A DNA stretch of 64,000 nucleotides, from contig JAACPN010000005.1 of the NCBI GenBank assembly GCA_009995425.1, positions 55,349 through 119,348 on the forward strand, given 5' to 3'. The notes under the pieces were generated by a model. The model was given only the letters and a program-made list of their open reading frames with translations. It had not been told where the DNA came from and made no database searches. The stretch comes from Legionella sp. GTDB lineage: Bacteria > Pseudomonadota > Gammaproteobacteria > Legionellales > Legionellaceae. This document shows positions 2,355 to 21,129 of the stretch, one piece after another. Numbering within the stretch: the first letter of the stretch is position 1; the number at the start of each line of letters is the position of its first letter. The position numbers and the translations under genes were made by a program.

Positions 2355-5278
2355 TGGACAAATCACTCATAGCACTGACCGATGCTTTAAAAAAAGTTTT
2401 AGTTGGATTACAACCCAACCAAAATAACCTGTCGTTTATCCTGCTTATTGGCAAGGCGGGACAAGGCAAAGCGACATTACTGCGTCATAATACACACAAA
2501 AATATCACCATTCATGCCGAGCGCACCGCTGAAATTTATTATAATGCCCAAGGCATTATACTTGAACTTGACGAAACTTGGAGTCAGCAAAGCACCGGCG
2601 TCCTAGCGCAAGCGTTAAAGCAGTTGAATCAATGTCATCGCGCGCTGAAAATTACGGGCCTTCTTTTAGTGGTTGATATCAACGAACTGATTATTCATTC
2701 ACCGACAGAGTTAACCCAAAATACACAAAGCCATGCCCAATTGCTGCAACGCTATGGGCGTGCACTGGGTTATGTGGTTGATACCGGATTTATTTTTACA
2801 AAACTGGATAGCTTGGCTGGTTTTTGTGATTTTTTTCAACATGATAAACGACTTGATCAACACAAACCGCTTGGATTTTCTATCGACTGGGGGCAAAAAA
2901 AAGGAAAACTTGCGCATAATTATCACGCGCGTTTTGAATACTTGTTGGAATCTTTAAGCCAAGATATGCTCCAAAAGGTGCATCCTGTGCGCTCCAGCCT
3001 GAAACGTAGTTTGATTCGAGAATTTCCACTACAACTGGCCAATTTTCAGTTTGCAATCGAAAGCCTGCTGAAACAAATATCCCCTAAACATTGCCGCGTT
3101 TGCGCTATTTATTTTACGAGTGCCCGACAAGGCGGCATGAGTGCTGATCATCTCAATCAAAAAATTTGTCATGAATATGCTTTAACCTTGCCCACACAAA
3201 TACCTCAGTCGAGCAATGATCGCGCGTATTTTATAGAGGGTGCGTTAGATGCATTTCAACGCCAAACCTACTATACCGCACCACGCCCTGCCGTCGCTCA
3301 AAAATACGTGGTGAGAACTGCATCGTGCTTGGTCGGATTTGCTATTGCATTGATCGTGCATCACCATGTTGCCTCATCACGCGTGCTGGATAACGTCACC
3401 CAAGAGCTTTTAGCGTATGACAGCTTAAACAAACAGACCAATAAGCAAAACAACGCGCTGTTTCACTTATCAAAAGCTGCTGATGCTCTCATGCAAATTA
3501 AACTCAATCGTTTATCACCACCCGCACTTCAACAACTTCACGCACGCATTGATTTTACGTCAAAACAACATGTGAACAACGGCTTTTTACCTCAAACGCT
3601 AAGAAGCCTTGAACATGTGCTGCGTGATCCTGAACAAAACACGTCCGCGCGTTATCATGCTTTAAAAATTTACATCATGTTGGGCGATCCGTTTAAACGT
3701 AACCCGGATGAAATGATCAACTGGTTTCAACACTATTGGCAAAAAAACAGTACCGCCGAAGAGCTACCCCGACAGATTGAACTTTTAAATAAAACCCTGA
3801 TTACACCCAAACAAGCGCTTGCTATTAATCAACAACTGGTACGTGATATTCGCGCCTACCTCAATGCCATACCAGCAGGTTATCTCTATTATTCGCTGCT
3901 GAAAGAAAGTTTTTCTACCGAGACAAAAAAACTTCATTGGGATGGCTTTAATTTGGGTGCAACCGAGGTTCCGCTGTATTTTTTAAAAACAGGATTTCAA
4001 CAAACCAGCTTAAATATTCCTTACGCAGCATCACAGTTTCAACTCGACAACTGGGTTTTAGAACGTCAGGATTTAGACAACTTATCCCATTTACTCGAAC
4101 AAGCCTACGCTTATGATTATTTCACATGGTGGAAGCAATTTATTAAGCATACCTCACCGCATCCTATTCAAAATTATACCGAAGGACAACGCCTGCTCAG
4201 CCTCTTTGATCAAGCCGATACACTTCGTGATCTCACGCATTTTATTCAAGCTCAAACCAGCCCCGATGTTGAACATCAAAACACCGTATTCAACCAACAC
4301 GTTGCAAGTCACTTTACCCACTTGAGCTTGGTGAGTGAGGCTGGACTACGTGATTTAGCGCTTGATATACGCGAAATACGCCAGCTATTAAATACCCTCA
4401 CCGTGGTTCAAGATGAAGGACAAACGGCCTTTAGGCTAACTAAGCAACGGTTTCTGAACACAGGATCTCGTCATGCACTCTCAACGCTCTATGCCAACGC
4501 AAAACAACTGCCTGAACCGGTTGCATCGTGGACGGAACAAATCGCAGATGATACGTGGTTTTTATTACTCAGTGACACCAAGCAATACGTGAATAGGGCA
4601 TGGTCGCAACAGATCCTTCCTGAATATCAACGTACGATTGCGCATCGTTACCCACTGGATGCAAACGCTTCAGAAGACATCGCACTCGCTGATTTTAACC
4701 ATTTTTTTGCACCCCATGGCGTACTCAATACCTTTACTGAACAATATATTAAACCATTTTTAGATACCTCACAGCCTGAATGGACGCGACAAGAAGCCGA
4801 CGGCCATGTTCTACCGATTCAGCAAGATATGATTCAAGCTTTCGTGCACGCAAACGTGATCACCGCCATGTTTTTTCCTGATGAACATGCATCAAGCCAA
4901 ATTAATTTTAGTTTACAAAAAATCGACTTAGATCCCATCATTGCCGGGCTTGAACTTTCTTTAGGTAGTCGACGTCTTCGCGACACACAAAATACGGATG
5001 CTGCAACTGATTTTATTTGGCCAGAATCCAATGCAGAGCTCATTTTGCATAGCATTGAAGGCAAACACTATGAACTCTCGGAAAAAGGCCCTTGGGCTTT
5101 ATTTAAAATCTTACAAAAATTCAATATTACTCTGGATGATAACGACGGTTCAAAACTTCAGGTTTTATTTGAAATCAACGGTGATTCAGGGCACTATTTA
5201 CTTCAAGCTAAGAGCGCACTGAATCCGTTTACACCAGGTATTTTAGCTGGTTTTAAATTAAAAGACCGTGTTGCCTAA
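2354..5278 (+). CDS. icmF: IcmF (TssM-like) component of the Dot/Icm system
   Basis: 974 aa, close to my recollection of the L. pneumophila IcmF length. N-terminal Walker A-like LLIGKAGQGKATLL. TM segment (CLVGFAIALIVHHHV). Translationally coupled to icmH. Confidence 0.85.
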   Translation: MDKSLIALTDALKKVLVGLQPNQNNLSFILLIGKAGQGKATLLRHNTHKNITIHAERTAEIYYNAQGIILELDETWSQQSTGVLAQALKQLNQCHRALKITGLLLVVDINELIIHSPTELTQNTQSHAQLLQRYGRALGYVVDTGFIFTKLDSLAGFCDFFQHDKRLDQHKPLGFSIDWGQKKGKLAHNYHARFEYLLESLSQDMLQKVHPVRSSLKRSLIREFPLQLANFQFAIESLLKQISPKHCRVCAIYFTSARQGGMSADHLNQKICHEYALTLPTQIPQSSNDRAYFIEGALDAFQRQTYYTAPRPAVAQKYVVRTASCLVGFAIALIVHHHVASSRVLDNVTQELLAYDSLNKQTNKQNNALFHLSKAADALMQIKLNRLSPPALQQLHARIDFTSKQHVNNGFLPQTLRSLEHVLRDPEQNTSARYHALKIYIMLGDPFKRNPDEMINWFQHYWQKNSTAEELPRQIELLNKTLITPKQALAINQQLVRDIRAYLNAIPAGYLYYSLLKESFSTETKKLHWDGFNLGATEVPLYFLKTGFQQTSLNIPYAASQFQLDNWVLERQDLDNLSHLLEQAYAYDYFTWWKQFIKHTSPHPIQNYTEGQRLLSLFDQADTLRDLTHFIQAQTSPDVEHQNTVFNQHVASHFTHLSLVSEAGLRDLALDIREIRQLLNTLTVVQDEGQTAFRLTKQRFLNTGSRHALSTLYANAKQLPEPVASWTEQIADDTWFLLLSDTKQYVNRAWSQQILPEYQRTIAHRYPLDANASEDIALADFNHFFAPHGVLNTFTEQYIKPFLDTSQPEWTRQEADGHVLPIQQDMIQAFVHANVITAMFFPDEHASSQINFSLQKIDLDPIIAGLELSLGSRRLRDTQNTDAATDFIWPESNAELILHSIEGKHYELSEKGPWALFKILQKFNITLDDNDGSKLQVLFEINGDSGHYLLQAKSALNPFTPGILAGFKLKDRVA

Positions 5279-5656
5279 TAACTTTTTGAACAAAGCCTTA
5301 ATGCTCACTCAATAAACATATGATCTCATTCAATCTTGTTTGTTAATTAATCAATACGGTGCTTATTGCTTACTCCCGATCAAATATCCCAGCTTGTCCT
5401 TATGATAAGTCGTACGTTTTCAGCTCAACAGGCTCTCCCTCAGACAACGAAAACATTGACACACTAAAAAAACAGGCCCTCGCGCTCAAAAATGAAAATC
5501 CATGTTGATAAATAAGCGTCATGTTGAAGATATGGCCATGGGCTTTAGCGTGATCACCCTATGAATTCAGTTACAATGGGTTAAGAAACAACGCCCCCTT
5601 AGAGAAATTTTTGTGTCGTTTGTATGTTATAGATCTAGATTGATGGCGCCATTTCG

Positions 5657-6572
5657 TTAATCCAATAGTGATAGGGGAATGGCCCAGAGATTATCCCCAA
5701 ATGACAAACATTCACTTCCATTATAAAGAACTATACCTGAAATCCACTTTTTATCAGCTAGCGTAGCGAGTTTTCTTAAGCCACGGAAATCTTGATCAAA
5801 AATCGTGTAACTTGATTTAACTTCGATACCTATAATCTTACGTGCATGATTTTCCAGAATAAAATCTACTTCCACTTGGTCTTTATCACGATAGTAATAA
5901 ATGTTCCATGGCTCATCAACTAGCGTACACATTTTCAATAATTCGCTATATACCCAAGTTTCTAATAAAGCCCCAAAAGAAGATTTATCCGTTTTAATAC
6001 TTTCGTGTGTATGTCTGTTCAGACAGGCTAGAAGACCACTGTCAATAAAATAGATTTTTGGTGATTTAAGGATTCTGCTTAAATTATTATCATGCCATGG
6101 CTTTAATTGATGCACTAAAAATAATGTTTCAAGTAAACCAACATACTTTTGCGCTGTTTTAGTATCCAATTTTAATTGCCCGCCAATTTGAGTAAAATTG
6201 ATCAGTTTACCTGATTGCTGTGCCAGCACCTCAAGTAAACGAGGCATTTCAACTAATTTTTCTATTGATGAGATGTCTTTAACGTCTCGTTCTACGATTG
6301 CTTTTATATAAGATTTAGCCCAAGCATTTCGCCGCTCAAAATATGATTACTTTATCGATTCGATTAACAAAACCAACAGGATCTTGCTTGACAGCATTGA
6401 GTATATTGTCATCATCCAACGTGTAGTAAGGTAAGGGCGGTGAGTACTCTTTGACTAAAGTTATCTTTCCTGATTGCCGAGGACCAATAACTAAAACAAC
6501 GGGTGTATCCTTCATGGCAATTTCCATTCGATTTTTAAGCTGTCTTGGAAAATTATTTGTATTCATATTCAC
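5657..6572 (-). pseudogene. Decayed AAA-ATPase (AAA_14 + DUF4143 type) gene: internal deletion plus frame change
   Basis: The 78-aa N-terminal ORF has the P-loop (VLVIGPRQSGKITL) and stops inside the Walker B strand (DKVIIF*). The 196-aa C-terminal ORF continues upstream in another frame as ..FERRNAWAKSYIKAIVERDVKDISSIEKLVE-MPRLLEVLAQQSG.., the typical DUF4143 entry. About 100 aa expected between the two parts are missing. Confidence 0.6.
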
Positions 6573-6589
6573 AGAGGCATCCTAAGTTT

Positions 6590-6624
6590 CGTCCAATATG
6601 GATTTCAAGCGCGTCCAATATGGA
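6590..6624. repeat. Two copies of the 13-bp direct repeat CGTCCAATATGGA, 22 bp apart, just upstream of the decayed ATPase gene
   Basis: Exact copies at 6590-6602 and 6612-6624. Each has a CCAATATGG near-palindromic core. They lie 18-52 bp upstream of the ATG at 6572. Confidence 0.5.
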
Positions 6625-6773
6625 ATACAAATAAATAGCATCTTTAATATAGCGTACAAAAAATGGCGACATGATGAAAAAAAAGAGATGGTATCATCTG
6701 AATCATTCTTTGCTGTCTTGATCATGGCGTGATGAAGTAGGCCAGCGGCATAAGCTGCTGGCTTTAGATCCGA

Positions 6774-8270
6774 TTAACTGGTTTTATCATGCCGCAAATG
6801 CGGAAAAAGCACCACGTCACGAATCGATGGCGCATCGGTAAACAACATCACCAAACGATCGATACCAATCCCTTCGCCCGCTGTGGGTGGCATGCCGTAT
6901 TCCAAAGCCTCAATGTAGTCATGATCAAAATGCATGGCTTCTAAATCACCGGCTTCTTTATCTTCGACTTGCTTCCTAAAGCGCTCGGCCTGATCTTCTG
7001 CATCGTTGAGCTCAGAAAAGCCGTTCGCAATTTCGCGACCTGCAATAAATAACTCAAATCTATCCGTCACCTCAGGATCGTGATGACTACGTCTGGCCAG
7101 TGGTGAGACTTCGGTTGGATAATCCATCACAAATGTCGGTTGGATGAGTAAATGCTCAACACGCTCTTCAAACATGATTAATTGCAACTTACCCACACCA
7201 TCCGTGGTTTTATAAACCAAACCAAACTTATCGAGCACAGCCTGACAAGCCACTTGTGTACTCAAATCCGCTTCTGATAACTCAGGATGATAATGTAAAA
7301 TAGCATTTTTTACACTGATACGTAGAAAAGGCTTATCAAAATCCAAAACATTGCCTTGGTACGTAATTTGACGTGTTTCAGCAACCTCATCACAAATTTT
7401 TTGAAATAACTGCTCCGTCAAATTCATCAAATCATGATAATCCGCATACGCTTGATAAAATTCAATCATGGTAAATTCAGGATTATGTCGCGTTGAAATT
7501 CCTTCGTTTCTAAAATTTCGGTTAATTTCATACACGCGCTCAAAACCACCCACCACCAAGCGTTTTAAATAAAGCTCAGGTGCTATACGCAAATACATAT
7601 CCATACCTAAGGCATGATGATGTGTTACAAAAGGACGGGCCACAGCGCCACCAGGAATCGGATGCATCATCGGTGTTTCTACTTCTAAAAATGCATGACT
7701 GTCCATAAATTGACGGAACACTTGAATCAAGCGCGAACGCAAAATAAACGCACGGCGTGTTTCTTCGTTAGCAATTAAATCCACATAGCGTTTACGGTAC
7801 CGCATTTCTTGATCAGCTAAACCATGAAATTTATCCGGTAGCGGTCGTAGTGATTTAGTCAACAATTGCAAGCTTGTTGCATGCAACGTAAGTTCACCTG
7901 TTTTTGTGATAAATAATGTACCCGTAACACCCACAATATCGCCTAAATCCCACTGCTTAAATTGCTCGTAGCTCTCCGGCATGTCATTGGCGCGTACATA
8001 GACTTGAATACGCCCTGAGACATCTTGAATATGAAAAAAGCTTGCCTTACCCATCACACGCCGCAGCACGATACGACCCGCAATTGCAGCAGGAACGGCT
8101 TGCTCAGCCAAAGCATCTTTTTCAACATGACCGTATGTTTCGTTCAGATCGCCTGCAAGCGAATCGCGACGAAAGCTATTTGGAAAATCAAATCCCTCTT
8201 CTCGAAGCGCAACCAGCTTTTGTTTACGTACATCATATACATCTAAATTATTTTCTATTACATCAGTCAT
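6774..8270 (-). CDS. lysS: Lysyl-tRNA synthetase, class II
   Basis: 498 aa. Class II motifs ([35 protein letters not shown]). Start overlaps the prfB stop by 8 nt, as in the conserved prfB-lysS operon. Confidence 0.95.
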
Positions 8271-10204: not shown

Positions 10205-10310
10205 GTACGCTCGCTGTTATCTTAAAATACCTTATAAAAACAGTATTGACTATAATAGCAGTCCTTGCAATGCGCGTGCATGAAAATTAGGCCGGGGGGA
10301 ATGTTTAACG

Positions 10311-11921
10311 TTATACTGGTATTGGAAGCGGTTCTTTGCCATTTTCTTCAGCGATTGCAAACTGCCTAACTTCTTTTAGATATTCCTTTTCTTGTGTTGC
10401 AAAATATCCACAAAGTCCAATAGAGCCCGTTACAATTGGCAAAATAGAGGCCGTCATTGCTGAAGCCCCGACACTTGTTACCGGTATACCAGCTAATTTG
10501 GCAAAAACACTCGTCATAGGTAGCGCCCAGTGCATTAAACTGGGTAATAGCGCCAGGCCGTTAATTGGCGAGCATAGTAAACTACCTAGGATTATCATCG
10601 TGATTGTAAACATACAAAAACCGAGAAATATTTTATGCCAAAAATCACGCCTTGCATCTATAAAATTAACAGTTTCAATTAATGCATTTAAATTATCTTT
10701 ATGCTCCTCTAAAAAATAGTACGGTCTTTGCATACGAGGATATTCTGAATGATAAATCGTATCAAAGTTTATTGATAACCTCATTCTTTCAAGTATTTCA
10801 CTGGCAGCTATAAAATCAGAAATATGTTTTTCTGTTGCAGAATAGGTAAGTTCAAAATCGTTGTTATCAGTATTGCACTGTGCCGCAAGAACTTTGTCGG
10901 AATCCATGTTTTTTATTATTTGCTTCAGTAGATTGAATGACTTAAATTTAAGGCTTTGTGGTGTATTTAATAATTGCTCATCCCAATAAGTAATCGTGTC
11001 TTGCATTAAAGAGCGTTGAACAAGATAATTTTCTACTTGCCTGCCCAAGTCGGGCAGATTAAAACCATATGTTTTTTCTTTGACACTTGAATATGAAACA
11101 ATTTTTTTATCACATAATTCAGCAGCACATCCATATGTAATAAAATGCTCGTTTTCAAATAGACGCTCATGTTCATTTTTAAAAAAAACATTTGTCGCTC
11201 TATAGGTGTCCTGTTGATTATTAAGCCTACTTAAAATATGGTTAGTGTAGGGCGCGGTAAAATCACCTACTTCTGGCGCAGGAAAACGACATACTGCCTT
11301 TTTTTCTTCTTCTATATCGTCTAGAAAAAAGGAAATTGATTCATCTAGAGCGGTATATAATGCTTCGTAATTTAAGTTTTTAACTAGCTGTAAAGCCGTC
11401 ACCCTCGTGGTATCTAATAAATAGCCTCTTATATTGCTTGCTCGGCGTGACGTAAAATCGAGTTCTCTTAAGCAAAAAACCAATGAAATTGATCGATGAG
11501 AGGCAAATCTAGATAAATATTTATACTCGAATTCTCCAGGGGTAATTCGGTTGTAGTTTAATTTCGCTCCATAGTCATGCATGGTTTCTGAATGCATGAT
11601 TTCTTCGAGCTGCCATCCATGTTGGGTTGCTTCTGTGTGTATTCTCAGCACAAATCCTTTTTCAGTGGTATGTCCTGCTTTTGATGTAACATCTAAAATT
11701 TCATTGACGAAATTAATATCTTCTATTTTGTTAGATAAATCAGTCAAATCAATGTTACCTGGTAGAGTGATTGCTTCCTGCATGCCTTGAGTAAAATAGG
11801 TTTTATTTGCATCATCCAAATACACGCAATCTTTCTCTGCGTTGCTTAAATCATCAAACAGAGACGACATTAATTTCAGACGAGATCTGTCCCACATTAA
11901 ATTATGCATTAAACGATCCAT
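10311..11921 (-). CDS. Hypothetical membrane-anchored protein (effector-like); 3-prime major part of a gene split by a MITE
   Basis: 536-aa ORF with no recognised family. C-terminal hydrophobic hairpins (IFLGFCMFTITMIILGSLLC..; ILPIVTGSIGLCGYF) followed by a Glu-rich tail (AIAEENGKEPLPIPV). The frame stays open 14 codons upstream of the Met, up to the MITE. Confidence 0.6.
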   Translation of the reverse strand: MDRLMHNLMWDRSRLKLMSSLFDDLSNAEKDCVYLDDANKTYFTQGMQEAITLPGNIDLTDLSNKIEDINFVNEILDVTSKAGHTTEKGFVLRIHTEATQHGWQLEEIMHSETMHDYGAKLNYNRITPGEFEYKYLSRFASHRSISLVFCLRELDFTSRRASNIRGYLLDTTRVTALQLVKNLNYEALYTALDESISFFLDDIEEEKKAVCRFPAPEVGDFTAPYTNHILSRLNNQQDTYRATNVFFKNEHERLFENEHFITYGCAAELCDKKIVSYSSVKEKTYGFNLPDLGRQVENYLVQRSLMQDTITYWDEQLLNTPQSLKFKSFNLLKQIIKNMDSDKVLAAQCNTDNNDFELTYSATEKHISDFIAASEILERMRLSINFDTIYHSEYPRMQRPYYFLEEHKDNLNALIETVNFIDARRDFWHKIFLGFCMFTITMIILGSLLCSPINGLALLPSLMHWALPMTSVFAKLAGIPVTSVGASAMTASILPIVTGSIGLCGYFATQEKEYLKEVRQFAIAEENGKEPLPIPV

Positions 11922-11963
11922 ACCAGAGATGAAAATTTTATAAAGATTATCTTCTTTTTTATA

Positions 11964-12121
11964 CTCGATTCCGAAGTTTTTAATGCTTGACTTTCAAAGA
12001 TCTCGACGTACCGCGTTTTATGCGCGGTATCCAGGAATCTTGCACCATCGCTGGTTCCCGCTGTTAAGCCACGGGAGGAGGGCACTTTAAAAAGTCAAGC
12101 ATTAAAAACTTCGGAATCGAG
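11964..12121. mobile_element. 158-bp MITE-like element with perfect 31-bp terminal inverted repeats and a 6-bp target-site duplication
   Basis: Left arm 11964-11994 (CTCGATTCCGAAGTTTTTAATGCTTGACTTT) is the exact reverse complement of right arm 12091-12121. It is flanked by TTTATA at 11958-11963 and at 12122-12127. The 96-bp core has no ORF and contains small hairpins (TACCGCG..CGCGGTA). Confidence 0.75.
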
Positions 12122-12205
12122 TTTATAGATTACAGCACTCAGGCTGCCGTCGAATTGGGTGCCAAAATCTTTAAAATTATTTTGTTGCTTTTTAAGATCT
12201 AGCAT
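12122..12205 (-). other. Orphaned 5-prime coding segment (28 codons) of the MITE-split gene
   Basis: ATG at 12205 with a GGAG SD 6 nt upstream. It encodes MLDLKKQQNNFKDFGTQFDGSLSAVIYK, then reads into the MITE and stops after 9 codons. Removing the element plus one TSD copy joins it in frame to 10311..11963. Confidence 0.65.
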
Positions 12206-12381
12206 TTCTAACTCCGATTTAAACTCTGTACACTCGTTTTAAATGCGGATTGTACTATAAACAGCTTAGTATTTAAACAATATTCATAAAATATGTTGCA
12301 TAATTTACTCTTTAAGTTCATTTTTTTGTGATTACTAATCATACCGAAACAACGGTTACTTTTCTAACACGTGCATGAAAA

Positions 12382-12963
12382 TCAGGATGAAGGAAAGTTT
12401 AACGTTGCACTGGCATTTGAAGTACACATTTGCGTTGCATCAACACAGGTAATCGCAATAGGTGCTGGTGTTGTGTTGTTCGACCACGTCACCACGTTAC
12501 TTAATGCCGCAGAGGGTGATGTGTTTGTACCAACAGTATACGTAGGATATTGAGCGGGTGTTCCCTGCAAAATGCCTAACTGAACGCACCAAGTTCCCGC
12601 ACCATTGCCTGGCGTCGTGGGTGCTGGACCTGAATTTTGCGCAGCTTCATACAGATAATTCATCATCATGCTATACACATAACCTGCGCCCAATGGCGCA
12701 GACGCAGAAGGATTCAATGTCATATCGTTTGACCACATGGCCCCGTAAAGATCACCATGATTATCAAAGTAAGATGTCGTGCAATCCGCTTGAAAAAGTT
12801 GTTGAATAAAGACGCCTGTGATCGTAAACATTTGGGCTTCAGAAGAATTCCGAATGGTTATAGAAGATAGTGAATCACCCAGCCTCCTGTCAAAGAATGC
12901 AGCATGCGCTATGTCTATAAAAAAAACACTTATACCTATCGTGATCAAGAAAATTTTTTTCAT
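12382..12963 (-). CDS. Secreted protein of unknown function, paralog A (4 conserved Cys)
   Basis: 193 aa with a signal peptide (MKKIFLITIGISVFFIDIAHA). It aligns with the neighbouring ORF: LSSITIRN / C / GAMWS / GAGYVYSMMMNYLYEA / TWCVQLG / ITCVDATQMCT. Confidence 0.7.
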   Translation of the reverse strand: MKKIFLITIGISVFFIDIAHAAFFDRRLGDSLSSITIRNSSEAQMFTITGVFIQQLFQADCTTSYFDNHGDLYGAMWSNDMTLNPSASAPLGAGYVYSMMMNYLYEAAQNSGPAPTTPGNGAGTWCVQLGILQGTPAQYPTYTVGTNTSPSAALSNVVTWSNNTTPAPIAITCVDATQMCTSNASATLNFPSS

Positions 12964-12990
12964 GCTCGTCCATTTAGGTTTTAATAAAAA

Positions 12991-13614
12991 TCAAGGCCGC
13001 TGATGTGGAAAAGGTTGCGGTTGAATGATATCTGTTGTAGTGCATTGCCTCGTTGAGTCATTGCAAATAATATTTGTAAAACTTATGGGAAGATCGCCCT
13101 CGATATACTGCACCAATTGATTGGCATTCTCTAACGCGCCATTTGTGCTTGTTAAAGTACCGGTACCTACGGTTTGATTGGTGACGCCTAACCACACACA
13201 ATAGGTATTACCGCCATTAAAAGAACCAGGCGTACCCAAAGCTCCATGCCCATCAATATGTGCTTGATACAAAAACATCATGATCATATTGTACAAATAA
13301 TTCGCGCCAATATTTCTCGTTTCATTCGTCGCCATCGTCACTTTCGGCGACCAAAGCGCACCAAAAGGAGCCCCCTCACTTTCAATCAAGGGCGTTAAGC
13401 AAGCATTTCCAGCACCCTCACCTAGCACGAACAAATAAATGCCCGTAACCGTATCTTCAGCACCAATATTTTGAATGCTTATCTGTGAAAGTGTGGCAGA
13501 AAGTATATCTCTTGACGTCATGAATTCAGTATTTTTAGAATTTAACATGGGAGGCGAAGCCAAGACCAAATGTGGTATAAGCAAGAATAGAAAAACCCAT
13601 GGCTTTATCATCAA
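12991..13614 (-). CDS. Secreted protein of unknown function, paralog B (4 conserved Cys)
   Basis: 207 aa with a signal peptide (MMIKPWVFLFLLIPHLVLAS). It shares blocks with paralog A: LSQISIQN / C / GALWS / GANYLYNMIMMFLYQA / TYCVWLG / IICNDSTRQCT. Confidence 0.7.
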   Translation of the reverse strand: MMIKPWVFLFLLIPHLVLASPPMLNSKNTEFMTSRDILSATLSQISIQNIGAEDTVTGIYLFVLGEGAGNACLTPLIESEGAPFGALWSPKVTMATNETRNIGANYLYNMIMMFLYQAHIDGHGALGTPGSFNGGNTYCVWLGVTNQTVGTGTLTSTNGALENANQLVQYIEGDLPISFTNIICNDSTRQCTTTDIIQPQPFPHQRP

Positions 13615-13684
13615 AATATGACTACATTAGATTGCATGAACTGATGTTATCATCGTTATTTTCGTTCCGCAATGAACTGACTGG

Positions 13685-15595
13685 ATGCTTATGAGTGCGA
13701 TTGGTGCAATATTTTCGATTCAAAACAAACCGATTGACGAAGCATCGCTGCAAGCATTGCATCATGGCATGGCTCGTCATGGAAAACATGGTTCAAACAC
13801 CTGGTTTTCGAACACGTGTGGGCTAACACAACAAAGCTACTACCACACATTAAGCACACAACTCGCGTCCTTTCCATATTTTGATAAAAAGCACAACATT
13901 GGCCTTGTTGCTGATGTTCGCTTATCGAATCGAACTGACCTGCACAAATCACTTCACGCCTCTTTTTCACATCAATATTCCGATGCTGAACTTATTATAT
14001 TGGCTTATTTAACATGGGGTATCGATTTTATACTCCATTTGGTGGGTGAATTTAGTTTAATCCTCTGGGACACAAAATTACATCGTTTCGTGGTTGCTGT
14101 GGATCACTTTAATACCCGGCCACTTTATTATTTTTTTAATCAAGATTTTCTGATCATTTCAAGCGTGCTTTCTGCCTTACATCATGTGCCGTGGGTACCA
14201 CGAGAACCTAATTTAAGTGTGATTGCACGACATGACTTTAAACGTTTTTTATTAGAACCCGGTGAAACATGCTTTAAACATCTTTATTTTTTACCACCGG
14301 CCAATCTTTTAATTGCTGATCCCTCGGGTATAAAATTTCACACGTACTGGCGTCCAACGTTAGGAGCGCCTTACGCTTTTAAATCAGATAACGATTTCCA
14401 AGAAGCCTTTCACGAGCATTTTTCAAACGCCGTGCATGCAACGGTCGATACCGACCGTCCTGTTTGCTTACAATTGAGTGGCGGTTTAGATTCTTCTGCA
14501 ATTGCACTTATGGCGGCTAACGTGCTTGGTTTTGAACAAAAGAAATTAATTTGCTTGTCCAACGTTTTGCCTCCTAATAGCCATGATAGCCTAAACGACG
14601 AACATGAATACATCGATTTAATCCATGCACCAAACCTTATCAAAGAAACCGTGATCGACCCATGGCGAGGGCCTTTTGATCATTTGGATGCATGCAAAAC
14701 ACACTTGTACACCAGTCCGCAACATTACCAGCACCGCGCGATCAACGCTGCGGCAAGGCGTCATCAAGCATCTGTTGTGTTACATGGCACACTTGCAGAA
14801 CTCACCACCAGTTATTCTGGCCACGAGCGCTTATCTGAGCTGTTCCATCGCTTACATTGGATAACGTTGATCCGCGAGCTTTTTGCTCACCGTAAAATTT
14901 ACAAAACATCGTCTCTATCGCTTGCCGCTTTGGTCATACACCCCAAAATTCTCCACGGATATCTTAAAAAACGACAGCACAGTACGCGCCAAAAATTACT
15001 GACAGCGAGCTTAATCAACCCAACATTTATTTTAGAGCAGATGACGCCCGATGCGTTGATGTGGCTTGAGCAACAGTTTTTAAAACCTTTGATTTTACAC
15101 AGCATGAATGCCCGTAAAAACGCCCTGATCCAGATAGAATCTCACCTAAGACATGCCAGCACCTTGTTTACCCAACTGGATGATGGAATTGATTCAGCTC
15201 TTTATTTTAGTAATCCTTATTTTGATAAACGCTTAGTCGAGTTTTGCCTCAACATTCCGAACGCCTATCGCTTTAGGCATGGCTATCCTCGCAGTATTAT
15301 TCGGCTAGGCATGCAAAAATATTTACCCAAAGCCATTGGCCAGCGCATCACAAAATCGCCTTTTTTACCTGATTATCATGTGCGCTATCATCAGCATATG
15401 TCAAAAGCACGGGAGGCTATCGAAGCCGTCCAATCACATCCTTTAGTACAACATGTGATTGATGTACCGCGCTTGTTATCATGCCTCAACACCCCTTCGT
15501 CTTCTCATGCACTCAGCACAGAAACAAACTTTTTAAATTACTATGTGATCCCACAAGCCGTTTATTTAGCTGTCTTTTTGTCTTCGTTTAGCTGA
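13685..15595 (+). CDS. Asparagine-synthetase homologue of the lasso-peptide cyclase (McjC-like, C protein) type
   Basis: 636 aa. The N-terminus MLMSAIGAIF lacks the Cys2 nucleophile of glutamine-hydrolysing AsnB. PP-loop ATP pyrophosphatase motif VCLQLSGGLDSSAIAL. Adjacent to PqqD-like and HPrK-like genes. Confidence 0.75.
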   Translation: MLMSAIGAIFSIQNKPIDEASLQALHHGMARHGKHGSNTWFSNTCGLTQQSYYHTLSTQLASFPYFDKKHNIGLVADVRLSNRTDLHKSLHASFSHQYSDAELIILAYLTWGIDFILHLVGEFSLILWDTKLHRFVVAVDHFNTRPLYYFFNQDFLIISSVLSALHHVPWVPREPNLSVIARHDFKRFLLEPGETCFKHLYFLPPANLLIADPSGIKFHTYWRPTLGAPYAFKSDNDFQEAFHEHFSNAVHATVDTDRPVCLQLSGGLDSSAIALMAANVLGFEQKKLICLSNVLPPNSHDSLNDEHEYIDLIHAPNLIKETVIDPWRGPFDHLDACKTHLYTSPQHYQHRAINAAARRHQASVVLHGTLAELTTSYSGHERLSELFHRLHWITLIRELFAHRKIYKTSSLSLAALVIHPKILHGYLKKRQHSTRQKLLTASLINPTFILEQMTPDALMWLEQQFLKPLILHSMNARKNALIQIESHLRHASTLFTQLDDGIDSALYFSNPYFDKRLVEFCLNIPNAYRFRHGYPRSIIRLGMQKYLPKAIGQRITKSPFLPDYHVRYHQHMSKAREAIEAVQSHPLVQHVIDVPRLLSCLNTPSSSHALSTETNFLNYYVIPQAVYLAVFLSSFS

Positions 15596-16404
15596 GCATC
15601 TAACCACGTGCCGAATTCATCAAAACACGCCAAATTATCTGGACGCGTTAATTGATAACACGGAATGGCGCTCGCCATGTGCGTCACGTGCTGCAAGTGT
15701 AGGTTTAATTTTCCAAGCGCTTTTAACATAGAATAACGGTAGGTATTTCTAATAAGCAATTGGATTTTATCGAAGTTGTATACCGGGGTTTCTTTGATTA
15801 TACCCTGACGATTGTCTACATGTAATTCATACACACGACTGATTTGAATCGGATGCTTCCACGCATGTTCAATGGGTAATTCAAACTTACCCGGTCGATG
15901 ACTAATCGGTTGAAGCGCGTCGCTTGACTTACCTAAATACGCAAGCGTATCTGTCCAAAGTTTTGCGCTTGTTGACATGGGCATAAGCTCCATCTGCTGG
16001 TCATGAAAACGAACAACGGCTAAATCATCCGTTAAAAACGGATAACCTTTTTGGTTCATGGTGGCAGCCAACGTTGATTTACCTTGTCCTGATGGGCCAC
16101 AGAACAAAACTGCTTGCCCATGCACAACAATTGCCGAGGCATGTAACACTAAAAAATCATGATATTGAAGTAAGTAGGCTAAAACCGTGCCATTAAGCCA
16201 GGTTAAAACGAGCTTAGGTTCACGTAAAGCAGGATCCATATCAATAAAAATGGTATTACTTTTTGCGCATACCTCATAACATGCAACATCTTTAATTTTA
16301 AAAAAAAATCGCGCTGCGTCACAATAATAATGCGTAGATGCATCTGGAAAGTTGATACGCTTATGTTTTAATACAATGTTCAACCCGAACGATTCTTTTA
16401 ACAT
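15562..16404 (-). CDS. HPr-kinase-related P-loop kinase (lasso-precursor Ser kinase type)
   Basis: 280 aa. LHASAIVVHGQAVLFCGPSGQGKSTLAATMNQKGYPFLTDDLAVV matches the HPrK/P C-terminal domain signature (LHG..V...G.G.L..G.SG.GKS..AL.L...GH.L..DD). Its 3-prime end overlaps the cyclase 3-prime end by 34 nt. Confidence 0.75.
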   Translation of the reverse strand: MLKESFGLNIVLKHKRINFPDASTHYYCDAARFFFKIKDVACYEVCAKSNTIFIDMDPALREPKLVLTWLNGTVLAYLLQYHDFLVLHASAIVVHGQAVLFCGPSGQGKSTLAATMNQKGYPFLTDDLAVVRFHDQQMELMPMSTSAKLWTDTLAYLGKSSDALQPISHRPGKFELPIEHAWKHPIQISRVYELHVDNRQGIIKETPVYNFDKIQLLIRNTYRYSMLKALGKLNLHLQHVTHMASAIPCYQLTRPDNLACFDEFGTWLDAQLNEDKKTAK

Positions 16405-16494
16405 CTTTATTTATTATACCTTGATGGGTAAATTGTCAAAAGCAGACAACCCAGTTAGAATAAATCCATACTAATGTAACGTAAATGCTTTGAT

Positions 16495-16941
16495 ATGAAT
16501 ATAGACTCAACAACCTTACTTAAAAAAGCAACGTCTTGCATTACTGAAGCAGATTTCGGGCATGAAACCGTCCTTCTTCACCTTGAAGATGGAAACTATC
16601 ATTGCATGAATGCCACCGCTTCTTTGCTTTGGGCGTGGCTAAATGAGCCCATCTCTTCTTCTTCCCTACATCAACGATTAGTCCGTGAATTGGGATATCA
16701 GCCAAGTCACGCGGACACCGAGATTTTTCAATGGGTCAACGATGCCTTAGCCAACAAACTACTCGAATTAGTTTCTCCACGTGCGTTTGAAGGATCTGTT
16801 GCAATCACAGAACAGAGCATGGATAACCAGCAACCCATCACGCATTATAGTTCGCCCAAAACAACCTTATTTGACGTGCTAACCATCACACAAGGCAATA
16901 GCACCGATTTTCAAACCGATAATTTAGAAACAGGATCATAA
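16495..16941 (+). CDS. PqqD-like RRE protein (lasso B1 type) carrying a 55-aa C-terminal extension that looks like a lasso precursor
   Basis: 148 aa. Residues about 5-92 have PqqD-family size and pattern (ETVLLHLEDGNYHCMNATASLLWAWLNEP.S...L...L). The tail is ..MDNQQPITHYSSPKTTLFDVLTITQGNSTDFQTDNLETGS*. Confidence 0.7.
   Translation: MNIDSTTLLKKATSCITEADFGHETVLLHLEDGNYHCMNATASLLWAWLNEPISSSSLHQRLVRELGYQPSHADTEIFQWVNDALANKLLELVSPRAFEGSVAITEQSMDNQQPITHYSSPKTTLFDVLTITQGNSTDFQTDNLETGS
16819..16941 (+). other. Candidate lasso precursor peptide (25-aa leader + 15-aa core GNSTDFQTDNLETGS), in frame within the PqqD-like ORF
   Basis: From the internal Met at 16819: leader MDNQQPITHYSSPKTTLFDVLTITQ with a YxxP motif and Thr at -2. 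The core (16894-16938) starts with Gly, has Asp at position 9 and ends in Ser. No convincing SD precedes the internal ATG, so independent translation is uncertain. Confidence 0.45.
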
Positions 16942-16964
16942 CGATTCACCAAGGATGTGTTAAC

Positions 16965-17728: not shown

Positions 17729-17801
17729 AGCCCCCAGGGAAGATTGATGATTAGACACTTAGATGTTAAAATAACACTTTTGATGTAAAGTCTAGAAAAA
17801 A

Positions 17802-18902
17802 ATGAAAATAATCAAACTCACGCTATTTATGATAGCCATTTTCTTCTGTGGATTTTGTCATGCTCATGATGCCCGATCAATATTTTATCAAGCATTCGAT
17901 TTTGCAAAAAATGAATCAGCATTTAAAGACAATATCGATTGGAATCAAATTGAAGAAAAGGGACTCGCGTTTATTGGAGATAAGCCGCTAGCTTGCCGTG
18001 GTATTTCAGCAATTAGTCATATTTTAGCACCCGAACTATTTAAATATGATTACCATACGTTTGTCACTGAAAATGGTTTAGACAGTGGTGAATGTCCTTT
18101 GTATAAGCCCCATGAAATAAGTGATTATTGGCACGATTGGGTTCAATTAAGCACGGTTAGAAGAGATTTTATTAAAAAAAAGATCGAGACCTTTTGGGGT
18201 AAACGATTTGGCGATATTGCATATATCTATATACCCAGCGGCTTTGCCTACAATGATGATGAAATAGAGGCAAGGATTCGCGAAGGAAGAAGTGTTGTTG
18301 ATAGCTTAAACCTTGAAACTGCAACGGGCATAATTGTTGATTTTCGCCTTAATACTGGGGGAAATTACGTCCCGATGCTGATGAGTCTTGCTAAAATAAT
18401 CAATCCTGCGACCCTATTTAAATATACACATGGAGAGAGCATAAGAATATCAGAAGATGGTAATACCCTCTTATCTTTAATACCTGGTGAACAAGAAGAA
18501 ATACTCTATAAAATAAGCTACCTCCCTCCGGTCAACCGAGTGAACCTACCCATCGTAATTTTAATCGATGAGGGAACAGCTAGCTCTGGGGCTATCGCGG
18601 CTTTCGCCCTCAAAGAAAATTCAAGTACGAATCAGTTATTAGGCGAAAAAACCAATCCGAGCCTATCCGTGAATGCAAGCTTACAATTAAACGATGGTAA
18701 CTATTTTAACTTGATGATCTTGAGAATTTTATCACCAACAGGTCTAGAGCAACCGCTATATCTAGACAGTGACATCCATGTAAAACATGATTTTTTCTCA
18801 ATATTTAGCACCAAGGATGAAAGTATTATACAAGGTATTAATTTAATAAGAGATCGGGTTAGGCGAAATACACGTGGAGAGCGTTATGTCCTTAAATCAT
18901 GA
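17802..18902 (+). CDS. Secreted S41-family (C-terminal processing) peptidase-like protein
   Basis: 366 aa with a signal peptide (MKIIKLTLFMIAIFFCGFCHA). S41-like blocks: IIVDFRLNTGGN and PIVILIDEGTASSGAIAAFAL. Confidence 0.6.
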   Translation: MKIIKLTLFMIAIFFCGFCHAHDARSIFYQAFDFAKNESAFKDNIDWNQIEEKGLAFIGDKPLACRGISAISHILAPELFKYDYHTFVTENGLDSGECPLYKPHEISDYWHDWVQLSTVRRDFIKKKIETFWGKRFGDIAYIYIPSGFAYNDDEIEARIREGRSVVDSLNLETATGIIVDFRLNTGGNYVPMLMSLAKIINPATLFKYTHGESIRISEDGNTLLSLIPGEQEEILYKISYLPPVNRVNLPIVILIDEGTASSGAIAAFALKENSSTNQLLGEKTNPSLSVNASLQLNDGNYFNLMILRILSPTGLEQPLYLDSDIHVKHDFFSIFSTKDESIIQGINLIRDRVRRNTRGERYVLKS

Positions 18903-19239
18903 AACATCTATCATTCAGTTTGAAGATTTTTTAAAAGTTGATATGCGTGCAGGTACCATTCTTGAGGCAAACTTTAATTCTAAAGCAAAAATACCAGCTT
19001 ATGTTTTAAAGATTGATTTTGGAGAGCTGGGAATTAAAACAAGTTCAGCACAAATCACGGATAACTATAAGCCAGAAGATCTTGTTGGTAAGCAAATTAT
19101 CGCTATAATGAACTTTCCTCCCAAACGCGTGGCTGGAATCAAATCAGAAGTTTTGGTTCTTGCTTGTGTTTCTCCTACATCAGGCACGGTTTTACTCCAT
19201 CCGTCGTTGGATGTAAGCGATGGATGCCGCGTGCTATAA
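18886..19239 (+). CDS. tRNA-binding domain protein (CsaA/YgjH-like)
   Basis: FEDFLKVDMRAGTILEA...IPAYVLKIDFGELGIKTSSAQIT..Y.PEDLVGKQIIAIMNFPPKRVAGIKSEVLVLA matches the EMAP/CsaA tRNA-binding fold pattern. The start is taken at MSLNHE; the track ORF starts 4 codons earlier. Confidence 0.75.
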   Translation: MSLNHETSIIQFEDFLKVDMRAGTILEANFNSKAKIPAYVLKIDFGELGIKTSSAQITDNYKPEDLVGKQIIAIMNFPPKRVAGIKSEVLVLACVSPTSGTVLLHPSLDVSDGCRVL

Positions 19240-19265
19240 ATATAAATGTACATGGAAGATTAAAC

Positions 19266-20384
19266 ATGAACACAACGCCTCAACGATTTTTATCTCTTGA
19301 TATCTTTCGTGGCTTAACCGTTGCCATGATGATTTTAGTCAATAGCATTGATGATCAACAGGCTTACTCATGGCTTAGACACTCAAGTTGGAACGGTTGC
19401 ACCTTAGCCGATCTTGTTTTTCCATTTTTTATATTTATCGTCGGTATGTCAGGCGTACTCTCGATTACAGGCTTAAAAAACAAAGGATTATCAACACAAG
19501 ACATCTTAAATAAAATTATAAAACGCACAGCGATTCTCTTTTTGATAGGCTTGCTCATCAATGCATTTCCTCATCATTTTGATCTGACCTCGATTCGCTT
19601 ATTCGGTGTTTTACAGCGCATTGCTATCTGTTATTTTTTTGCCTCACTGCTCTTTCTCACCTGTCGTGCACAAACACACATCATCATCCTAACCAGCTTA
19701 TTGGTGGCCTATTGGCTCGTCATGATTTTAATCCCCGTACCCGGTTATGGCGTACATAACTTAACTCAAGAAGGAAACTTTGCTGCCTACCTCGATAGAT
19801 TATTTATTCCAGCCCAGCATTTATATACGAAAAATTTCGATCCAGAAGGTATCTTCAGTACACTTCCTGCCATTGCAACCGCCTTGCTTGGCAATCTGCT
19901 GAGCATGTGGCTTCTGACACCCAACCCTCAAACCCGGCGGTTACATGGCATGATCCTTGCCGGGAGCGTGGCCATGATACTTGGCTGGTTGTGGGGGGTT
20001 AGCTTTCCCATCAATAAAGCAATCTGGTCAAGTTCTTACGTCTTATGGACGTCTGGAATCGCCCTGCTCCTGTATGCCTTAGTTTACTGGTGCGTTGAAA
20101 TGCACCGTTGGCATTCATGGCTTAAACCGTTTGAAATTTTTGGCAAACATGCACTGATTGCATTTGTACTTCATGTTTTATTTTTAAAACTACAGGCAAA
20201 ACTCTTTGTTCATACGCCAGCAGGTGGGCTCATCAATTTACGTGATTTTCTTACGTTGCATCTCTTTCCTCATGTTGCTTTGTCTCATGCTGCATTTCTT
20301 TATGCCTTAGCATGCGTCGCATTTTGGCTGATCGTTATACTTGCTTATGATCGCGCGAAGCGCTGGACTAAAGTAGAAACATAA
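19266..20384 (+). CDS. Multi-pass membrane acyltransferase-like protein (DUF1624/DUF5009, HGSNAT-like)
   Basis: N-terminal RFLSLDIFRGLTVAMMILVN motif and about 10 predicted TM helices. The start is taken at the internal Met (MNTTPQRF), which removes the overlap with the upstream gene. Confidence 0.7.
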   Translation: MNTTPQRFLSLDIFRGLTVAMMILVNSIDDQQAYSWLRHSSWNGCTLADLVFPFFIFIVGMSGVLSITGLKNKGLSTQDILNKIIKRTAILFLIGLLINAFPHHFDLTSIRLFGVLQRIAICYFFASLLFLTCRAQTHIIILTSLLVAYWLVMILIPVPGYGVHNLTQEGNFAAYLDRLFIPAQHLYTKNFDPEGIFSTLPAIATALLGNLLSMWLLTPNPQTRRLHGMILAGSVAMILGWLWGVSFPINKAIWSSSYVLWTSGIALLLYALVYWCVEMHRWHSWLKPFEIFGKHALIAFVLHVLFLKLQAKLFVHTPAGGLINLRDFLTLHLFPHVALSHAAFLYALACVAFWLIVILAYDRAKRWTKVET

Positions 20385-20449
20385 CTACTTTCGTGCTATA
20401 CTATCTACATCTACACGAGTGAAGCAAAAATTTATTATGCGAGGTTGAT

Positions 20450-20707
20450 ATGACCATAACAACGATTAGCAGCAGAGAATTCAATCAAGACGTTAGTAAG
20501 GTAAAACGTGCGTCTTCACGTGGCCCTGTCTTTATTACTGACAGAGGCCGACCGGCGCACGTTTTATTAACAATAAAAGATTATCAAAATCTTACAAAAA
20601 CAAAAGAGAGTATCGTTGAACTTCTAGCCATGCCTGATGCGGCTAACATTGATTTTGAACCACCCAAATTAAATAAGACACTTTATCAAAAAGAGGACTT
20701 GAAATAA
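20450..20707 (+). CDS. Type II antitoxin, Phd/YefM family
   Basis: 85 aa. The opening ISSREFNQDVSKVKRASSRGPVFITDRGRPAHVLLTIKDYQNL is typical. Its stop overlaps the start of the PIN toxin gene. Confidence 0.8.
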   Translation: MTITTISSREFNQDVSKVKRASSRGPVFITDRGRPAHVLLTIKDYQNLTKTKESIVELLAMPDAANIDFEPPKLNKTLYQKEDLK

Positions 20708-21129
20708 TGTATCTACTGGATACCAACGTGATTTCTGAGTTAAGAAAAGCAAAATCAGGAAATGCCCATGAAGGCGTCATTTCATGGGCTAACAGCATCC
20801 CCGTATCTAACCTTTTTTTGTCGGTTATGACTATTTTAGAGCTTGAAACCGGTATATTACAGATAGAGCGGCGTGATGTATCTCAAGGATCCGTCTTACG
20901 AACATGGCTTTCCATGCATGTTTTACCAGCATTCAATGATCGCATTTTGCCTCTCGACACGGCTGTTGCAGCACGCTGCGCAAGACTCCATGTCCCTAAT
21001 CCAAAATCAGATAGAGATGCAATCATCGCAGCAACAGCTTTAGTTCATGGGATGACCGTTGTTACACGAAACGTTGCTGATTTTGATAAAACAGGCGTAG
21101 ATATCATAAATCCTTGGGGATCTGATTAA
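20707..21129 (+). CDS. vapC: Type II toxin, PIN-domain VapC family
   Basis: 140 aa. MYLLDTNVISELRK N-terminus. Conserved acidic residues (D5, E..; DAIIAATALVHGMTVVTRNVADF). Confidence 0.85.
   Translation: MYLLDTNVISELRKAKSGNAHEGVISWANSIPVSNLFLSVMTILELETGILQIERRDVSQGSVLRTWLSMHVLPAFNDRILPLDTAVAARCARLHVPNPKSDRDAIIAATALVHGMTVVTRNVADFDKTGVDIINPWGSD

Follow-up and report, generated by a model that had tools for sequence, protein, structure and literature searches.

Is the 158-bp segment with inverted ends that lies close to fliA in an uncultured Legionella a mobile element, and did its arrival sever a protein-coding gene? The segment was noticed in a 64,000-nt stretch of Legionella sp. DNA (NCBI GenBank assembly GCA_009995425.1, contig JAACPN010000005.1, positions 55,349 to 119,348 of the forward strand), called here the window, whose own numbering is used for all positions given without a contig name. 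The original prediction, made from the letters alone, held the segment to be a miniature inverted-repeat transposable element (MITE) that had very recently split the 5′ end of a gene for an effector-like membrane protein. Our analysis leads to a closely similar answer, to which we assign a probability of about 0.9: a 158-bp MITE, that is, a non-autonomous transposable element, recently inserted into the 5′ part of a 576-codon orphan gene of an uncultured Legionella or other member of the Legionellaceae. This reading draws on the anatomy of the element, on family copies that each carry a duplication of their own and on the absence of the element from the allele of a sister strain.

Anatomy of the 158-bp element

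The element occupies positions 11964–12121 and ends in perfect 31-bp terminal inverted repeats (TIRs). An exact search located the TIR sequence, CTCGATTCCGAAGTTTTTAATGCTTGACTTT, at 11964–11994 on the plus strand and at 12091–12121 on the minus strand with 0 mismatches, while none of 100 shuffled sequences contained a match; the outer 28 nt are those that recur in the family and in the candidate parent insertion sequence (IS) described below. With a 14-nt seed, this pair was the sole inverted repeat of the window. Flanking it on both sides is TTTATA (TATAAA on the gene strand), at 11958–11963 and 12122–12127, the two copies of the target-site duplication (TSD). The element thus has the small size and the TIRs of a MITE. 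Open reading frames (ORFs) starting within it encode 26, 35 and 58 amino acids, and there is no transposase among them. Its predicted fold has a free energy of −81 kcal/mol (z = −12 against shuffles), in keeping with the strong hairpin originally foreseen, and every checked detail of the original description, including the length, the perfect TIRs and the TTTATA flanks, proved correct. The boundaries can be drawn around a 158-bp element with a 6-bp TSD or around a 160-bp element with A...T ends and a 4-bp TSD; the sequence and the empty site described below fit both and cannot separate them.

The complete element and its flanks are identical in three independent assemblies made from different samples with different assemblers. 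Eight of the 11 independent assemblies of the filled allele (L001, L002, L006, L007, L020 and L109–L111) stop within the element, at the inner boundary of the second TIR. De Bruijn assemblers would be expected to fail on reaching the second arm of such a 31-bp repeat, and the element explains why assemblies of this organism break repeatedly at this locus.

The exact 31-mer of the TIR had 0 matches in 185,579 species-representative genomes, in which the representative is another strain or species and the conserved end of the family is only 28 nt long, and the TIR pattern had 0 matches in viral contigs. The sole Rfam match, to a plant miRNA precursor family, scored 30.9 bits where the gathering score is 119; we rejected it as a generic resemblance between long hairpins, far below the threshold. 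No terminator-like site was found at the locus, nor did inspection by eye and a consensus scan reveal an outward promoter within the element that could serve the truncated ORF.

An empty site in a sister strain

An uninterrupted allele was reached through the 90% cluster of the interrupted protein rather than through fliA synteny. The third member of this cluster, of 541 amino acids, is encoded on scaffold Ga0401687_0122 (hereafter L112) from Joint Genome Institute (JGI) sample 3300036184. At the corresponding site L112 reads ...GCTGTAATC TATAAA AAAGAAGAT..., with a single TATAAA and no element. The scaffold has a 100-N gap here (L112 2832–2931), and the empty-site sequence is present at both contig ends around it; these ends share an overlap of 95 nt that coincides with the insertion site and give the empty-allele junction GTAATCTATAAAAAAGAAGAT. 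From the same GGAG-ATG as in the window, the frame of L112 runs unbroken as MLDLKK...SAVIYKKEDNLYKIFISGMDRLMHNL, and merging the overlap yields an ORF of 581 amino acids. The two BLAST pieces of the window aligned to the merged L112 overlap by exactly 6 nt, which are the TSD. Comparison with an empty site therefore displays the duplication directly, with TTTATA present twice in the window and as a single copy in L112.

This empty site settles that the 164 bp are a recent insertion. Upstream, L112 and the window are 100% identical over 2,769 bp; downstream, identity is 98.9%. Contigs with exactly the 536-aa or the 532-aa product all belong to one strain, and all of them have the element. The insertion is young and polymorphic between the two sampled strains because the sister strain keeps the gene intact. 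That it is very recent, as predicted, rests on its intact ends and on an upstream flank in which the filled and the empty strain show 0 differences over 2,769 bp. The empty site with one TTTATA, which the original prediction proposed to look for in sister strains, is seen in L112 as a single TATAAA and a continuous ORF. Had the 158 bp been single-copy and present in all relatives, a native regulatory element would have been suggested; instead, both an uninterrupted allele and dispersed copies were found. One possible cause of the break in the L112 scaffold, with its overlapping ends, is that this sample contained both alleles, filled and empty.

Likely consequences for the interrupted gene

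The gene is read from the minus strand. Its severed 5′ part (12095–12205) begins at an ATG at 12205, preceded at a distance of 6 nt by a Shine-Dalgarno-like GGAG (12212–12215), and comprises 28 native codons, MLDLKKQQNNFKDFGTQFDGSLSAVIYK, followed by 8 codons encoded by the element and a TGA, giving an ORF of 36 amino acids. On the other side of the element, the rest of the gene (10311–11963) is open from the insertion site onwards; its first ATG, at 11921, opens the ORF of 536 amino acids (10311–11921), whose frame extends back to the element, and has no Shine-Dalgarno sequence. Removing the element together with one TTTATA (164 bp) fuses the 28-codon ORF in frame to the 536-aa ORF in a single frame of 576 amino acids, just as originally proposed. 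The insertion point therefore separates codon 28 from codon 29 of the 576-codon orphan gene, which stands immediately upstream of fliA.

The 40 N-terminal codons restored in this way have a codon-usage log-odds score of 10.3 in a model trained on 28 long ORFs from the window. Windows taken in frame from real genes average 10.8 ± 4.3, and only 2% of intergenic 40-codon windows reach 10.3; among simulated intergenic windows 9% were stop-free, and 0.5% of those stop-free windows attained this score. We infer that the upstream 40 codons are truly translated, a reading that is well supported by these scores, by the ribosome-binding site and by the continuity of the frame in L112. Disruption of the coding sequence is accordingly the very probable outcome, with the remaining weight falling on an insertion into the leader of the gene, as weighed below.

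Translation from the GGAG-ATG at 12205 would stop after 36 codons at the TGA of the element. The remaining 536 codons would have to start at an ATG that lacks a ribosome-binding site and sits behind a very stable hairpin with a 31-bp stem. The 164 added bases, not being a multiple of three, also change the reading frame, and a ribosome that passed the TGA would therefore still not restore the protein. Because native-start translation would end after 36 codons and the 536-codon ORF lies behind this hairpin without a ribosome-binding site, this strain most probably has a null or strongly reduced allele, or makes at best a weak, N-terminally truncated product. Upstream of the ATG at 12205, a sigma-70-like match, TTTAAA-17-TACAAT (12249–12277, minus strand), is a weak indication of a promoter, as a consensus match of a kind no commoner here than in shuffled sequence.

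The interrupted protein belongs to no Pfam family and, among 5.8 billion clustered proteins, had no relative but itself; the database search with the fused 576-aa query returned only the 536-aa form. An exhaustive HMMER search found only short modules, at residues of about 52–131 and 138–289, in unnamed metagenomic proteins, with which the protein shares a 75-aa module. A hydrophobic region at fused residues 467–501 and beyond and an E-rich C terminus (EENGKE) are no more than hints at a Dot/Icm effector, and an effector-like nature of the product is a reasonable guess. A candidate N-terminal homologue, P0011, an 82-aa protein from a 791-bp contig in the European Nucleotide Archive that matched at 74% over residues 1–38, was rejected, as it corresponds to window positions 11958–12205 read through the TGA. 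It is the severed 5′ ORF with the TGA of the element translated as Trp, presumably the result of a gene call with a TGA-sense code on a short contig.

Between the window strain and L112, the gene differs by 29 substitutions and a 15-nt indel, clustered in about 800 bp (window 11092–11894) and lying mostly at residues 198–279; 23 of the differences are nonsynonymous, with dN/dS at about 1.1. The fliA-prfB region is identical between the two strains, as is the 2,769-bp upstream flank. The clustering could be due to a recombined divergent segment or to relaxed or diversifying selection. A diversity-generating retroelement was rejected as its source, since the substitution spectrum lacks an adenine bias.

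A dispersed family in another Legionella

A 20-mer of the TIR, scanned against JGI metagenome contigs, matched at 14 loci. Full-length copies of 147–174 bp, numbering twelve or thirteen and thus at least 12, all came from one assembly, Ga0155617, which represents another Legionella, with an asparagine synthase 81% identical to that of L. taurinensis. These copies are 75–78% identical to the window copy overall and have near-identical TIRs. Each is embedded in different flanking DNA and has its own duplication of 5–6 bp (TGTATA, TGAACA, TTAAAA, TTTAGA, TATAAA, TATCAA, TTTAA, TTTTA, TTTCA or TGATA), always of the form T...A. The element is thereby a member of a multi-copy family at unrelated sites in Ga0155617, and is represented by one copy in the 64-kb window. 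Eleven of 12 copies are intergenic, often tens of bases from gene ends, so an insertion into a likely coding region, as in the window, is the exception.

A candidate parent insertion sequence

The ends of the element also occur on a transposase-encoding element. On contig L016 (Ga0066378, 1,708 bp), they are found at 2–29 and 1595–1623, flanking an ORF of 466 amino acids and delimiting an IS of 1,622 bp; IS ends of this type begin CTCGATTCCGAAG... Homology between the MITE and the IS is limited to the 28-bp ends. An autonomous IS sharing the TIRs therefore exists, in metagenomes other than that of the window, and the original suggestion that searches for the element and its TIR would reveal further copies and a parent IS has been borne out by the Ga0155617 copies and by this IS. 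Three further contigs from other samples, found through P0026, a partial protein identical to the L016 transposase, encode a 99.8%-identical transposase in at least two different flanks.

The L016 protein matches Pfam DDE_5 with 35.9 bits (cutoff 27) and belongs to a family of more than 1,800 proteins at E ≤ 1e-10. Its best NCBIfam models are those of IS701, led by NF033540 at 76.9 bits against a cutoff of 150, with other IS701 and IS4 models scoring lower; no IS1634 model was among its NCBIfam matches at E ≤ 0.01. A relative with 60% transposase identity is present as four IS copies in one 2.78-Mb contig, with ends ACTCGATTCAGCAGTTTTTAATTCTTGAC and duplications TAATA, TGGTA, TACAAA and TATAA, which, like those of the MITE copies, are 5–6 bp long and of the form T...A.

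IS701 and IS1634, split from IS4 by De Palmenaer et al. in 2008, resemble the L016 IS in having a DDE transposase with Pfam DDE_5 and DDE_Tnp_1 and duplications of about 5 bp, as against about 10 bp; the shorter length sets IS701, ISH3 and IS1634 apart from IS4 proper (PMC2266710). According to the same source, IS1634 elements are 1,500–2,000 bp long with AT-rich duplications of 5–6 bp, and those of IS701 are 1,400–1,550 bp long with duplications of exactly 4 bp (PMC2266710). The 1,622-bp length and the duplications seen here (among them TTTATA, TGTATA, TTAAAA, TATAAA, TTTAA and TAATA) match the IS1634 row. The L016 IS exceeds the IS701 length, and the T...A duplications of the MITE copies and of the 60%-identical relative read as 5–6 bp, or, if the invariant A and T belong to the element, as 3–4 bp, again not 4 bp throughout. 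Size and duplications thus fit IS1634 and sequence similarity points, weakly, to IS701; the ends of the L016 type (CTCGATTC...) fit neither published end consensus well. We therefore leave the L016 IS without a family, as an IS701/IS1634-like member of the 'emerging' IS4-related DDE group that fits the criteria of neither family in full.

A DDE transposase of this IS701/IS1634-like kind, supplied in trans, may have bound both inverted ends of the MITE and inserted it into an AT-rich T(N3-4)A site by making a staggered cut, whose repair would have produced the TTTATA duplication. Within Ga0155617, a short remnant of a related transposase (L019 5607–5714; residues 290–325, 61% identical) hints that an IS of this transposase family may once have been present in that genome.

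A REP-like core between the ends

The 96-bp core of the element is an inverted pair of GC-rich hairpins that resemble repetitive extragenic palindromic (REP) sequences. Unit 1, at 12010–12034 on the plus strand, reads ACCGCGTTTTATGCGCGGT followed by ATCCAG. Its inverted partner, unit 2, at 12051–12076 on the minus strand (CTGGTTCCCGCTGTTAAGCCACGGGA when read on the plus strand), was delimited by alignment to the family copies and to a hairpin pair of L. shakespearei (L058). Similar units, single or paired and without these TIRs, are found at many loci in Legionellaceae, and pairs that align to the core as REP doublets include those of L058 (3730–3812 and 8429–8511), L054, L081, L044 and others. 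Further core-type loci were seen at about 585–705 of L009, about 3920–4150 of L011, about 7312–7418 of L014 and 683–785 and 8012–8112 of L018. A second repeat family of Ga0155617 combines a similar core with different TIRs (AACGCCATTCTCAACTTCTC...) and makes 5-bp duplications of its own (TAATT and GATCT); a third type is also present.

These alignments suggest that the shared core may be carried by several kinds of element. The MITE looks like a set of IS ends around a REP-like doublet rather than a deleted IS. Because the doublet occurs in at least two MITE families with unrelated TIRs in one Legionella genome, and also naked, it may have been captured repeatedly as cargo. More tentatively, and in our judgment doubtfully, the MITE could be chimeric, its IS ends framing a Legionellaceae REP-like doublet, a palindromic repeat of the host taken up again and again by different transposition systems, and, as a separate matter, filled and empty alleles might coexist in the L112 sample.

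Weighing the alternatives

Several results weigh against a recent MITE insertion into a coding sequence. A family profile matched the window only at this element, so a single copy is present there, and the one JGI sample of this strain included in the metagenome scan matched only at this locus. As originally stated, the window encodes no transposase; tblastn with the family transposase found no homologue in it. Provision of a transposase in trans is supported to the extent that an IS with the same ends was found in other metagenomes, whereas none was found in the 64 kb of this genome examined. The transposase of the candidate parent IS falls below the NCBI cutoff for IS701. Finally, no protein homologue covers residues 1–40 of the fused protein, so translation from the ATG at 12205 is argued from sequence statistics, and the probable loss of function is likewise read from sequence.

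The same MITE could have entered the 5′ untranslated leader of a gene whose true start is the ATG at 11921 (536 amino acids), the upstream open frame being fortuitous; in that case transcription or mRNA structure would be affected by the element, which would not truncate the protein. All gene callers start at or after this ATG (536, 532 and 541 amino acids), although their calls were made on interrupted or gapped sequence, in which the upstream start could not be chosen. Residues 1–40 have no homologue, conserved domains begin at about residue 52 and, given how frequent stop codons are in intergenic DNA, about 7% of 40-codon runs would be open by chance. Against this, the 40 codons score as coding, at a level that 2% of intergenic windows attain, a canonical GGAG-N6-ATG stands at 12205 where the ATG at 11921 has no Shine-Dalgarno sequence, and the frame is continuous in the empty allele. 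We consider a leader insertion unlikely on this evidence. Much less likely still is a REPIN-type REP doublet mobilized by a REP-associated tyrosine transposase (RAYT), with only an incidental match of its ends to the IS. Such a doublet would account for the inverted pair of REP-like hairpins in the core and for the same pair without TIRs at many Legionellaceae loci; yet all copies carry a 5–6-bp duplication (no search for RAYT genes was made), the DDE IS that has the same 28-bp ends shows the same duplication signature, and the MITE and the IS are homologous in precisely those ends and nowhere else. Neither RAYT movement nor movement of the IS200/IS605 type is known to make target duplications.

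Two further explanations carry almost no weight. The 158 bp could be a native structured RNA or regulatory element of the locus, such as a leader hairpin, attenuator or small RNA, as the very stable fold (−81 kcal/mol, z = −12), the single copy in the window and the presence in every contig of this strain would allow. It is refuted by the precise absence of the element from the sister strain, which has a single TATAAA, and by at least 12 copies at unrelated loci, each with its own target duplication; its ends are moreover identical to those of a transposase-encoding IS, the only Rfam match lies far below threshold (30.9 versus 119 bits) and no terminator-like site was found. An assembly artefact, in which assemblers created or misplaced a hairpin-like 158 bp, is equally hard to sustain. 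The eight of 11 filled-allele assemblies that break inside the element and the gap of the L112 scaffold at the site might be cited for it, but the element is read through in full, with the same sequence, in three assemblies that differ in sample and assembler, de Bruijn assemblers would be expected to break at the second arm of such a repeat and the family is present at many other loci. The MITE insertion into the orphan gene thus remains our preferred explanation, and all features that define a MITE are present, with the multi-copy status and the partner IS coming from other genomes.

Genomic setting

Database matches place the window in the Legionellaceae. FliA, encoded just downstream of the interrupted gene, has matches only in Legionellaceae genomes, the best being a Legionellaceae metagenome-assembled genome (MAG) at 93% identity, and a member of the cluster of the interrupted protein is named 'MAG: hypothetical protein [Legionella sp.]' at NCBI. 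None of 80 Legionellaceae genomes carries the interrupted gene near fliA (0/80). In the closest reference genome, a Legionellaceae MAG (L022) with flanks about 88% identical to the window at the nucleotide level, about 50 bp (5886–5935) stand in place of window positions 10273–16949 (6.7 kb). The absence of this stretch from the closest reference places the interrupted gene within variable accessory DNA. Besides that gene, the stretch includes two small paralogous genes and a lasso-peptide-like cluster, and on this comparison would be a strain- or species-specific accessory islet next to fliA. Three other parts of the window, 5263–6786, 17732–19261 and 20359–21130, likewise do not align to L022. 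The closest relative has a gene in divergent orientation upstream of fliA; transcription of fliA therefore presumably starts from a separate promoter, which the insertion need not disturb.

The two adjacent paralogous genes (12382–12963 and 12991–13614, minus strand) encode proteins of 193 and 207 amino acids that have hydrophobic N termini and belong to neither a Pfam nor an NCBIfam family. Inside the first of them, near 12465, three assemblies are broken, and paralogy is probably the cause. Positions 13685–16941 contain the lasso-peptide-like gene set, including an HprK-related kinase and a PqqD-like chaperone. The best NCBIfam match of its 636-aa asparagine-synthase homologue is to a lasso cyclase (283 bits, below the cutoff), and this homologue is only 27% identical to the housekeeping-type asparagine synthase of another Legionella.

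Relation to known elements and significance

Correia elements of Neisseria are another example of bacterial MITEs. In Legionella genomes, MITEs have been described as widespread by a census (PMC11602168). Coxiella burnetii, reported to be close to L. pneumophila, has MITEs that overlap ORFs, namely QMITE1, with direct repeats of 2–3 nt, and QMITE2, of 150–190 bp with direct repeats of 7–11 nt (PMC5896051). The present element resembles both in a size of 150–400 bp, in TIRs, flanking direct repeats and the absence of a transposase, in numerous, mostly intergenic copies that sometimes overlap or alter ORFs and in the strong hairpin formed by transcripts. It differs in its duplications, which are of 5–6 bp rather than 7–11 or 2–3 nt, a comparison based on the published descriptions. 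Unlike the QMITE and Correia elements, the present family has a candidate parent IS with identical ends.

REP doublets (REPINs) and mosaic repeats of the bacterial interspersed mosaic element (BIME) type consist of inverted REP hairpins dispersed in genomes. Two inverted GC-rich hairpin units with a short spacer, dispersed in intergenic DNA of Legionellaceae, form the likeness to our element; the difference is that the doublet here is enclosed by IS-type TIRs and moves with target duplication. Rickettsia palindromic elements insert in frame into genes. Like them, the present element is a palindromic sequence of about 150 bp within a protein-coding gene of an intracellular bacterium; by contrast, its 164 bases are not a multiple of three and a TGA follows 8 codons into the element, so it breaks the protein and adds no peptide segment.

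The locus provides a clean natural MITE knock-out of a strain-specific, fast-diverging accessory gene, documented by a filled site, an empty site and a candidate parent IS. It is a well-documented but ordinary inactivation of a gene by a mobile element, useful for annotation and unsurprising, and it leaves the current understanding of transposition and of Legionella biology unchanged. In a limited literature check, we found no prior description of this MITE/IS pair. Its ends, target signature and core are now specified, and annotators can use these features to recognize the family in Legionellaceae genomes. The REP-like core common to several repeat families offers a lead on the origins of MITEs. 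If filled and empty alleles do coexist in the L112 sample, the family would be active now in natural Legionella populations, where it would be switching off a fast-diverging accessory gene.

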